In this document: one piece after another, positions 38,216 through 43,067 of the stretch | Numbering within the stretch: position 1 is the first letter of the stretch | How the letters are laid out: each line of letters begins with the position of its first letter | Virus record (IMG/VR): IMGVR_UViG_3300030104_005963 | DNA length: 64,000 bases | Source: a virus | Reading direction: 5' to 3' (one strand) | Notes under the pieces: model-generated | The model's database searches: none | Seen by the model: only the letters and a program-made list of their open reading frames with translations | Told to the model about the DNA's origin: nothing | Program-made: the position numbers and the translations under genes

Positions 38216-38455
38216 ATGACTGAACAACAACAACATCTTGCAAATCTTATTGAACAGAGAGATGGATTGAGAAGTGATCTTGAAAAACTTCAAGAAACAA
38301 CCGGAAATAGAAGAGAATTATTTTTTAAAGTGCAGGGTGCCATCGAATATTTGACACAGACTGGAGTTCAACTTCCAGAACCAGAACCAGAAGCAGAAGT
38401 GGCAGAGACGGAAGTGGTTGAAGAATCTGCTCCAAAAAAAGGAAAAAAGGGTTGA
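38216..38455 (+). CDS. Small coiled-coil acidic protein
   Basis: QQHLANL..QR..L; QGAIEYL. Confidence 0.65.
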   Translation: MTEQQQHLANLIEQRDGLRSDLEKLQETTGNRRELFFKVQGAIEYLTQTGVQLPEPEPEAEVAETEVVEESAPKKGKKG

Positions 38456-38480
38456 CGCACTAATTTAGATGCCCTATAAT
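38452..38480 (+). promoter_or_regulatory. sigma70-like promoter for the tRNA-Arg/ncRNA/talC unit
   Basis: TTGACG, 17 nt, TATAAT. Confidence 0.8.
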
Positions 38481-38540
38481 AACTGAGTTGAGAGGCAAAC
38501 ACGGGTAAGAGGAACGACAAACTGTTCCCGCCTCTCACAT

Positions 38541-38614
38541 GACTCAGTAGCTCAGCTGGATAGAGCAACTGCCTTCTAAGCAGTCGGTCGTAGGTTCAAG
38601 TCCTACCTGAGTCG
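38541..38614 (+). tRNA. tRNA-Arg (anticodon UCU), CCA not encoded
   Basis: GACTCAG/CTGAGTC acceptor stem, ACTGC-CTTCTAA-GCAGT, GGTTCAAGTCC. Confidence 0.95.
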
Positions 38615-38637
38615 TTGGAAATCGACGGATTTCCATA

Positions 38638-38810
38638 GGGTGTGACAGAACAACGCTTGTGGAGGCACGGCGTAATGTATAATAGGACAGGGGTGGTGCC
38701 CGCTGTGTTCGCACAGAACTCTTACCAGGAGGTCCGAAAGTCTGAGTGACCTATTATCACATCAGTGATTCCCACTCGGTGAAGGTATAATGTATTCCTT
38801 CCACCCACCA
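38638..38810 (+). ncRNA. Highly structured RNA, manA-motif-like candidate, with a tRNA-like ACCA end
   Basis: Multiple helices (GGCAC/GTGCC, ATAATAGG/CCTATTAT, CTGTG-TTCG-CACAG, GAGTG/CACTC, GGGTG/CACCC-ACCA); lies between a tRNA and talC. Confidence 0.6.
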
Positions 38811-38885
38811 CAACACAACCATGGGTAGACATCTCCCCAAAATTGCAGGTTGGTTCACCTGCATCTTTTCCATATTTTTGTTAAA

Positions 38886-39530
38886 ATGAAAATTTTCCTG
38901 GATACTGCCGATACTGAAGTAATTAAAAAATATTATGAAACTGGATTGATTGATGGTATTACTACCAATCCTACTCTGATTATGAAGAGTGGTAAAAATC
39001 CTGATGATGTATATCAAGAACTAAAAGATCTTGGAGTCAATGACCTAAGTATGGAAGTTGTTGGTACTGCTGATGAAATGATTAAAGAAGGACTCAGACT
39101 TCAGGAAAAATTTGGTTTCTGCACAACTGTAAAAGTTCCAATGACAAAGGATGGTCTTACCGCCTGCCGAGAACTATCATATCAAAATATTAGAGTTAAT
39201 GTAACTCTTATTTTCTCTGCTGCACAGGCAGTTCTTGCTGCTCGTGCCGGTGCTTTTTATGTGTCTCCTTTTGTGGGACGACTTGATGATCAGTCTGTGG
39301 CAGGACTTGAAGTGGTACGTTCTATTTCTGAACTGTATCGCATTCATGGATGTCCCACACAAGTTCTTTCTGCTTCTATCCGAAGTGTGCAAAGAGCAGT
39401 GAGGTCGTGGTATAATGGAGCTCAGGTGGTCACAATGCCACCTAAGGTCTTTGAAGATATGTACAATCACATTCTTACTGATAAAGGATTGGAAATATTT
39501 GACAAAGACTGGCAGTCTGTTGTAAAATAG
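38886..39530 (+). CDS. talC: Transaldolase (TalC/FSA family)
   Basis: MKIFLDTAD, GITTNPTL, VKVP (Schiff-base Lys), NVTLIFS, YVSPFVGRLDD. Confidence 0.97.
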   Translation: MKIFLDTADTEVIKKYYETGLIDGITTNPTLIMKSGKNPDDVYQELKDLGVNDLSMEVVGTADEMIKEGLRLQEKFGFCTTVKVPMTKDGLTACRELSYQNIRVNVTLIFSAAQAVLAARAGAFYVSPFVGRLDDQSVAGLEVVRSISELYRIHGCPTQVLSASIRSVQRAVRSWYNGAQVVTMPPKVFEDMYNHILTDKGLEIFDKDWQSVVK

Positions 39531-42711: not shown

Positions 42712-42963
42712 ATGGAAAAAGATGCTATCAATCTCACTCTTATACATGAGTGGATGACAGTATCTGATGCTAAACTTTTACTTCACTATCAATACATGAA
42801 AGTGAGGTCTCATAAAAAATATGGTGGATGGAAGACTGTTCAGACTCTCATGAATATTGCCTATGGCATTTATCAAAGAGAGTCTGAAGAATTCTTGAGA
42901 GCTAGATTAGATCTTATTAAGTCACGGATGGACTCTAACAGCACTGGTCGGGACAACCCCTAA
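42712..42963 (+). CDS. Hypothetical protein
   Basis: 83 aa; the C-terminal codons coincide with a structured element. Confidence 0.45.
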   Translation: MEKDAINLTLIHEWMTVSDAKLLLHYQYMKVRSHKKYGGWKTVQTLMNIAYGIYQRESEEFLRARLDLIKSRMDSNSTGRDNP

Positions 42964-43053
42964 GTTTCCTGCTTCTTTAAAAAGCAGGTGGTGCGGATGG
43001 AGGTAATACTCCCGCCCTGTTTCTTGCTTCAGGATAAAGAGTAAGTGGCGTGC
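42964..43053 (+). ncRNA. wcaG-RNA-motif-like element
   Basis: Two GTTTC-hairpin-TGGYG units (TGGTG 42989, TGGCG 43046), potential pseudoknot CCTG/CAGG, directly upstream of an NAD-dependent epimerase. Confidence 0.65.
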
Positions 43054-43067
43054 ATGGCAAAGACCTT

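Follow-up and report, generated by a model that had tools for sequence, protein, structure and literature searches.

A locus in the DNA of an uncultured T4-like cyanomyovirus raises the question of what kind of RNA lies between a tRNA-Arg gene and the transaldolase gene talC, and of whether this RNA acts on its neighbors or on its own. In the stretch that was analysed (64,000 nucleotides, hereafter the window), a segment of 173 nt (38638-38810) starts with GGGTG (38638-42) and ends with CACCC (38802-06) followed by ACCA (38807-10), and GAAGG (38781-85) pairs with CCTTC (38797-801), directly 5' of CACCC. A sequence-only reading had pointed out these features, along with two copies of TAATGTAT (38673 and 38788) and the lack of an encoded CCA in the tRNAs of the window, and had proposed a processed tRNA mimic rather than a simple cis-regulator of talC. 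The observations themselves are accurate, and none of the six tRNA genes called by ARAGORN in the window has CCA after it. The closest isolates of the source phage, e.g. S-SKS1, are ~80% identical over conserved genes, and the neighboring DNA resembles that of Synechococcus myoviruses.

It is near certain that the element, which spans 38616-38811 on the plus strand, is a full-length RNA of the known manA family. In an Rfam scan it matches RF01745 with 105.1 bits (E = 3e-26) over model positions 1-192 of 192, a score that exceeds the gathering cut-off of 55.2 bits for this family and that was obtained in scans run at the gathering threshold and at a permissive E<=10. The sequence-only reading had named the right family, but had drawn the boundary at 38638 too tightly, the model starting at 38616 with a conserved 5' hairpin that had been missed. 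The GUGGUG and ACCA loops typical of manA are present at 38693-98 and 38724-27, and the closing helix and terminal hairpin are kept with compensatory changes, the window being a U-A variant. The T4-like cyanophage or marine setting is that expected of manA, which is found in P-HM1/2, P-SSM2/3/4/5/7, S-TIM4 and others. With 105 bits versus 170-194 for most relatives, the window copy forms, together with those of contigs L098, L150 and L181, a divergent, low-scoring subgroup of Synechococcus-phage type. A minimum free energy fold of the single sequence fails to give the family structure (z = -1.6) and was not used. As a single instance, the element is routine annotation, a manA RNA already findable by Rfam.

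Relatives were collected through two pattern scans of IMG/VR, which yielded at least 99 anchor matches and at least 81 unique complete manA cores; the counts given here refer to pattern-selected metagenomic contigs among the matches listed, which are not mutually independent. The retrieval patterns force the presence of GTGAC.GAA and GGTGGTGC. All 18 loci checked by Rfam are full-length manA (100-194 bits), while two complete copies failed the complementarity filter applied during core extraction: that of L095, with one U-U mismatch, and that of L181, a true manA. Helix and loop conservation was read from an alignment of 79 sequences onto which the Rfam structure was mapped.

In this alignment, GGGTG/CACCC and GAAGG/CCTTC are real helices, corresponding to the family closing helix and to the last hairpin. 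The five pairs of the closing helix (GGGUG, 38638-38642, with CACCC, 38802-38806) are G-C, G-C, G-C, A-U or U-A, and G-C, and are standard in 79 of the 79 listed sequences, a figure that is partly circular because core extraction demanded a complementary 3' strand. The covariation check that had been suggested for this helix bears it out, pair 4 being A-U in 72 and U-A in 7 of these sequences. The last hairpin (helix 12, 38781-38801), in which GAAGG and CCUUC enclose the 11-nt loop UAUAAUGUAUU (12 nt in some relatives), is paired in all 79, with three covarying pairs. The 5' hairpin (38616-38635; 8 bp in the Rfam model) carries a GACG loop (38624-27), a sequence found at this site in 55 of 80 listed relatives, (U)GAUC(A) being present in 13 of them.

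These loops acquire a potential role from a recent preprint, in which manA RNAs (RF01745) are reported to form discrete homo-oligomers in vitro, in 10 mM Mg2+ after annealing at 50 C (Ren et al. 2026, bioRxiv 10.64898/2026.07.01.735769). The construct manA_A0F1 forms a 60-subunit T=1 shell ~430 A across, and other manA constructs form decamers or octamers; the base of these assemblies is a pentamer whose protomers meet at the intermolecular kissing loops L5-L7' and L8-L9', to which L1-L1' is added in the 60-mer. The A0F1 construct (Table S3 of the same preprint) extends from the 5' hairpin to 4 nt beyond the closing helix, where it ends in UCCU, and its sequence type is the majority cyanophage type among the listed relatives. 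In our own mapping onto this numbering, which is inferred from figure labels and the construct sequence and not from coordinates, L1 is the loop of the 5' hairpin (P1), L5 is GUGGUG, L7 is ACCA, L8 belongs to the long hairpin, and L9 to the last hairpin.

The UGGU of L5 (in GUGGUG, 38693-38698) is complementary to the ACCA of L7 (38724-38727), and both are invariant in 79 of 79 listed sequences, GUGGUG being part of the retrieval pattern and the L7 ACCA having been demanded only by the first of the two patterns. The aligned columns of L8 and L9 pair in 89.6% of cells among the listed relatives, with pair types CG 62/AU 16, UA 71/AU 7, and GC 68/UA 6; double changes number 29 where 5.2 are expected, and the covariation score is attained in 0 of 500 shuffles, a signal that is blind to whether the loops pair between or within molecules. 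Scoring with loops delimited by RNAfold was noisy (own mean 3.2, cross mean 2.8), and the column count is the valid test. The window carries a compensated variant, CAU (38760-62) in L8 and AUG (38790-92) in L9 replacing CUG/CAG. This AUG lies inside the second copy of TAATGTAT, which sits in loop L9, and this explains part of what the sequence-only reading had noticed; as a functional repeat, TAATGTAT was discarded, an exact 8-mer repeat occurring in 13% of shuffles of the element and not being conserved as a repeat. Judged from its sequence, the window copy keeps all three published contact sites (L1 GACG, L5/L7, and L8/L9). A longer 5' hairpin, together with differences in P3 and P8, makes its stoichiometry (8, 10 or 60) unpredictable.

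Such an assembly evokes the question of how the RNA is produced. In the window, a sigma-70-type promoter (TTGACG-17 nt-TATAAT, 38452-38480, plus strand, 11/12 consensus matches) is likely the start of the tRNA-Arg/manA transcript. It is followed by a predicted structured leader (38481-38539, plus strand; -20.4 kcal/mol, z = -2.5 versus shuffles), a stable hairpin whose 5' part, ACUGAGU, repeats the acceptor 3' strand of the tRNA, and by the tRNA-Arg gene itself (38540-38615, plus strand; anticodon UCU, no encoded CCA; called by ARAGORN, 71 bits in Rfam), which the 5' hairpin of manA abuts, its first base coming right after the tRNA end. Past the closing helix and the ACCA tail lies a terminator-like element (38844-38880, plus strand), composed of the hairpin UGCAGGU/ACCUGCA (38844-63) and a U-rich tail, and then talC (38886-39530, plus strand; Pfam TAL_FSA, E = 2.5e-51). 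Elsewhere in this tRNA-rich region, a full-length wcaG RNA (RF01761, 92 bits, 42960-43059) precedes a sugar epimerase gene.

The arrangement upstream recurs across the relatives. A promoter with at least 9 of 12 consensus matches is present in 65 of 79 listed loci, its -10 box ending 3-6 nt (in two cases 9-10 nt) before the 5' hairpin, and inspection revealed promoters of the TTGACA-17-TATAAA type, or similar, in eleven more of the 79, so that a consensus sigma-70 promoter directly precedes manA in ~76 of the 79 listed relatives. In the window and in L150, a tRNA-Arg gene stands directly upstream in place of the promoter. Before manA in contig L061 there is no promoter, and what by eye resembled the 3' half of a tRNA is called as a tRNA by neither ARAGORN nor Rfam. 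Since a promoter or a tRNA lies directly before the 5' hairpin across the relatives, the RNA would be expected always to begin at this hairpin. In L160, manA is preceded on its own strand, at a distance of ~230 nt, by a glutamine riboswitch (RF01739, 37.7 bits, 312-360).

The downstream side is more varied. Of 80 listed copies, 17 have an intrinsic terminator as the first feature, 15 have a conserved, U-tailed element, 7 a tRNA (at 4-18 nt) and 41 an ORF (at 11-50 nt); a terminator, conserved element or tRNA therefore comes before any gene in 39 of the 80. Downstream genes include talC in 6 of 80 listed loci, in 5 of which one of these three features intervenes, and gp32-like genes in 17. In L043, L070, L180, and L213, manA is followed by a terminator and then by a fresh promoter, and the nearest relatives of the window copy, those of L098 and L150, have different downstream genes. 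Three complete genomes, P-HM2, P-SSM2, and S-TIM4, carry exactly one copy each, located before gp32 in the first, before purL-hsp20-purM in the second and, by our own reading, after gp23 and beside a small unannotated ORF in the third. In the viral contig L181, which harbors an array of 18 tRNAs and a cyanobacterial-type tmRNA around the element, manA (2452-2659, 100 bits) takes up precisely the space from tRNA-Gly to tRNA-Val (region 2374-2735). The single copy per genome, the unrelated neighbors and the lack of a shared expression platform are easier to reconcile with a stand-alone RNA gene than with a metabolite riboswitch; this context is a poor fit to the 'Cis-reg' label that manA bears in Rfam, and it argues against a talC-specific cis-regulator, in keeping with the doubt expressed in the sequence-only reading, which the promoter, terminator and neighbor statistics of the relatives also support.

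The U-tailed element deserves a brief description. It is ~45 nt long and consists of CCUAAGAUGCAAC, a covarying hairpin of 3-4 bp, and NGGGCAGAUGG, usually closed by ACC/GGU and then followed by a U run. As CCUAAGAUGCAAC...GGGCAGAUGG, it lies 8-17 nt after manA in 15 of 80 listed loci (L046:4560-4617, minus strand; also L011, L036, L050, L063, L112, L136, L139, L142, L160, L173, L208, L210, L218, and L221); it is absent from the window and matches no Rfam family at E<=10. An unusual tRNA-Gly(UCC) with the T arm GGUGGUGCAAUACCAUC is found immediately downstream of either manA or the CCUAAG element (L063:5685-5755, minus; L112:918-988; L153:2344-2414, minus; L204:393-463, minus), scoring 52-56 bits with the Rfam tRNA model; its T arm has the word GGUGGUGC in common with the L5 hairpin of manA and with wcaG. 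In addition, GenBank records contain short 'hypothetical protein' CDSs that overlap manA and that are probably spurious (L222, P-HM2 NC_015284 4849-5023; L224, S-TIM4 ORF_135).

These observations lead us to favor, with modest confidence, a model in which an early transcript shared with tRNA-Arg yields manA as a discrete RNA, one that stops at its own terminator and whose kissing loops drive its self-assembly. The host polymerase would transcribe manA early, together with the tRNA, from the promoter at 38452-80. Processing of the tRNA 3' end would set the 5' end of manA at the base of its 5' hairpin, which makes the discrete, processed RNA of the sequence-only reading plausible. Most transcripts would then stop at the terminator at 38844-80, talC being reached only through read-through or from another start. 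Comparison with its relatives shows that the RNA has the manA architecture, in which the 5' hairpin is followed by the closing helix GGGUG/CACCC drawn round a multi-helix core. We infer that manA most likely works as an abundant, discrete RNA that associates with itself, and that it is unlikely to be a tRNA mimic or a switch specific to talC. Its UGGU/ACCA (L5/L7), CAU/AUG (L8/L9), and GACG loops match the three reported intermolecular contacts, which in the cryo-EM structures link five protomers in a pentamer and the pentamers, in turn, in decamers or a 60-mer shell. A more tentative extension, which we regard as possible but doubtful, is that manA is no cis-regulator but a stand-alone early gene. 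Its product, freed by a promoter start or by tRNA processing, would form RNA-only shells built on pentamers inside the infected cyanobacterium, and these would enclose or display something, for instance a host factor or a metabolite, or would serve as a high-copy decoy; the ACCA-tailed, tRNA-linked copy of the window would be a variant of the cage subunit. Evidence that runs against the model comes from about half of the listed relatives, in which manA stands 11-50 nt before an ORF with no terminator (before gp32-like genes in 17), an arrangement that a leader role fits.

The reading proposed for the locus at the outset, that of a tRNA mimic whose 5-bp 'acceptor' and ACCA end are aminoacylated, or that serves as a decoy for anticodon nucleases, RNases or CCA-adding and repair enzymes, draws on a genuine likeness: as in tRNA, tmRNA, and viral tRNA-like structures, the 3' strands of two stacked helices run on without a break, the last hairpin here taking the place of the T stem and the closing helix that of the acceptor stem, and ACCA follows them in the window and in L098. 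The tail, however, is not conserved; among 81 listed relatives it is ACCC in 28, TCTT in 19, TCCT in 11, ACAC in 6, and ACCA in only those 2, and the construct that forms the cage in cryo-EM ends in UCCU. The resemblance to a T arm does not survive inspection either, as a tRNA would have a 7-bp acceptor and a 5-bp T stem with a loop of 7 nt, while manA has a 5-bp helix and a loop of 11 nt whose centre covaries with L8; the conserved 5' hairpin falls outside the proposed mimic altogether. In a search of 38440-38900, no tRNA, tmRNA or tRNA-like-structure model of Rfam matches 38616-38811 even at E<=10, the match being to manA instead, and ARAGORN calls no tRNA on the element. The GGTG that had been suggested as a local competitor for CACC does exist at 38778, but it is not conserved, being AGTG in L098, GGTA in L150, and TTTG in most others. 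It is true that manA is enriched beside tRNA genes, with two copies directly after a tRNA, and that a tRNA starts within ~55 nt downstream in 11 of 80 listed loci, L181 being a further case outside this set; in L153 and L204, RNase P cleavage would even leave a 4-nt 3' overhang. Weighed together, these data make a tRNA mimic highly improbable.

Regulatory readings call for more attention. Weinberg et al. (2010, PMC2864571) placed manA in the 5' UTRs of sugar, nucleotide, chaperone, and photosynthesis genes and proposed from these positions that it could be a riboswitch; both that work and Rfam label it cis-acting. For the window this would mean that manA, on sensing a metabolite or factor, decides how much transcription passes the terminator at 38844-80 and enters talC. 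The 41 of 80 listed copies that closely precede an ORF, the recurrence of talC in 6 and of gp32-like genes in 17 listed loci, and the terminator after manA in the window agree with such a role, which we nevertheless consider unlikely. There is no consistent expression platform: terminators lie 0-47 nt past the closing helix, without overlap or a shared strand (one dubious call, in L163, is at 82 nt), and in neither the window nor the relatives surveyed does an expression platform overlap the aptamer. Candidate switching devices were considered and set aside. As an antiterminator in the window, the sole pairing between the manA 3' side and the terminator is, by our own reading of the sequence, a weak 5-bp CAACC/GGUUG; the G-rich, GGGAG-like terminator arms are a general trait of cyanophage terminators, shared by the ones that precede manA; and a CUCCC strand acting as an anti-Shine-Dalgarno is at odds with the many downstream genes that have no Shine-Dalgarno sequence and with the variable spacing. 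Furthermore, a riboswitch would have to accommodate downstream genes that often miss a Shine-Dalgarno sequence and are functionally unrelated (gp32, talC, purL, small ORFs, tRNAs), the different genes following the copies nearest to that of the window, the single copy in each of three complete genomes, the terminators with fresh promoters after the copies named above, and the L181 copy between two tRNAs. We know of no ligand for manA. A gene-independent alternative is a promoter-proximal device that acts on the polymerase or the transcript, either by processive antitermination (cf. HK022 put and EAR) or as a 5' stabiliser against RNase E. The constant position of the RNA start, only a few bases from where the transcript begins or a tRNA ends, the terminators or terminator-like elements ahead of same-strand genes in ~40% of listed loci, and the diversity of the downstream genes are all as such a device would have it. 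Against it, a 170-nt fold with invariant loops far exceeds the need of a stabiliser, and antitermination is disfavored by the loci that restart with a new promoter past the terminator, by the copies between or before tRNAs, which would need little of it, and by the absence of put or EAR similarity on the element in the Rfam search (E<=10); either version leaves the covarying loop-loop contacts and the published oligomers unexplained. We judge it quite improbable, more so than a riboswitch.

Beyond the single instance, the importance lies at the level of the family. From 2010 onward, manA had remained an orphan 'riboswitch candidate'. The survey puts the 60-subunit shell reported in vitro into a biological frame: a consensus early promoter or a tRNA directly adjoins the 5' hairpin, half of the loci have terminators or tRNAs past the 3' end, each genome has a single copy whose neighbors are unrelated, and the L8/L9 loops covary. 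Taken together, these features suggest that manA RNA arises as a discrete early product, probably in abundance, as a self-assembling particle would need. If this holds, cyanophages would be the first place in which to seek natural RNA cages in cells.

The closest known systems are found within the family itself. Compared with RF01745 as a whole, the window copy has the same helices and the same invariant GUGGUG/ACCA loops, and it likewise resides in T4-like cyanophage DNA beside sugar-metabolism and tRNA genes; it differs in its longer 5' hairpin, its altered P3 and P8, and its ACCA tail. It shares family and contact loops with the manA_A0F1, 67AA, 6FAB, and Photobacterium manA assemblies resolved by cryo-EM (Ren et al. 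2026), from which its peripheral helices differ. The comparison with tRNA, tmRNA, and tRNA-like structures, drawn above, ends on the short stem, the large loop, the variable tail and the extra 5' hairpin. The ROOL, GOLLD, and OLE multimers (Kretsch et al. 2025, PMC12286853) are likewise structured phage or bacterial RNAs that form symmetric, protein-free homo-oligomers or cages, but their protomers are far longer, with several hundred nucleotides, their sequences are unrelated to manA, and they occur in other hosts. Finally, RNAC and RNAD of phage T4 (PMC3014915, PMC9697503) are also small, stable, non-tRNA RNAs that lie among T4-type tRNA genes and are co-processed with them; they are classed as late, whereas the manA promoters are of early type, and the likeness is one of kind and setting rather than of demonstrated sequence relation.
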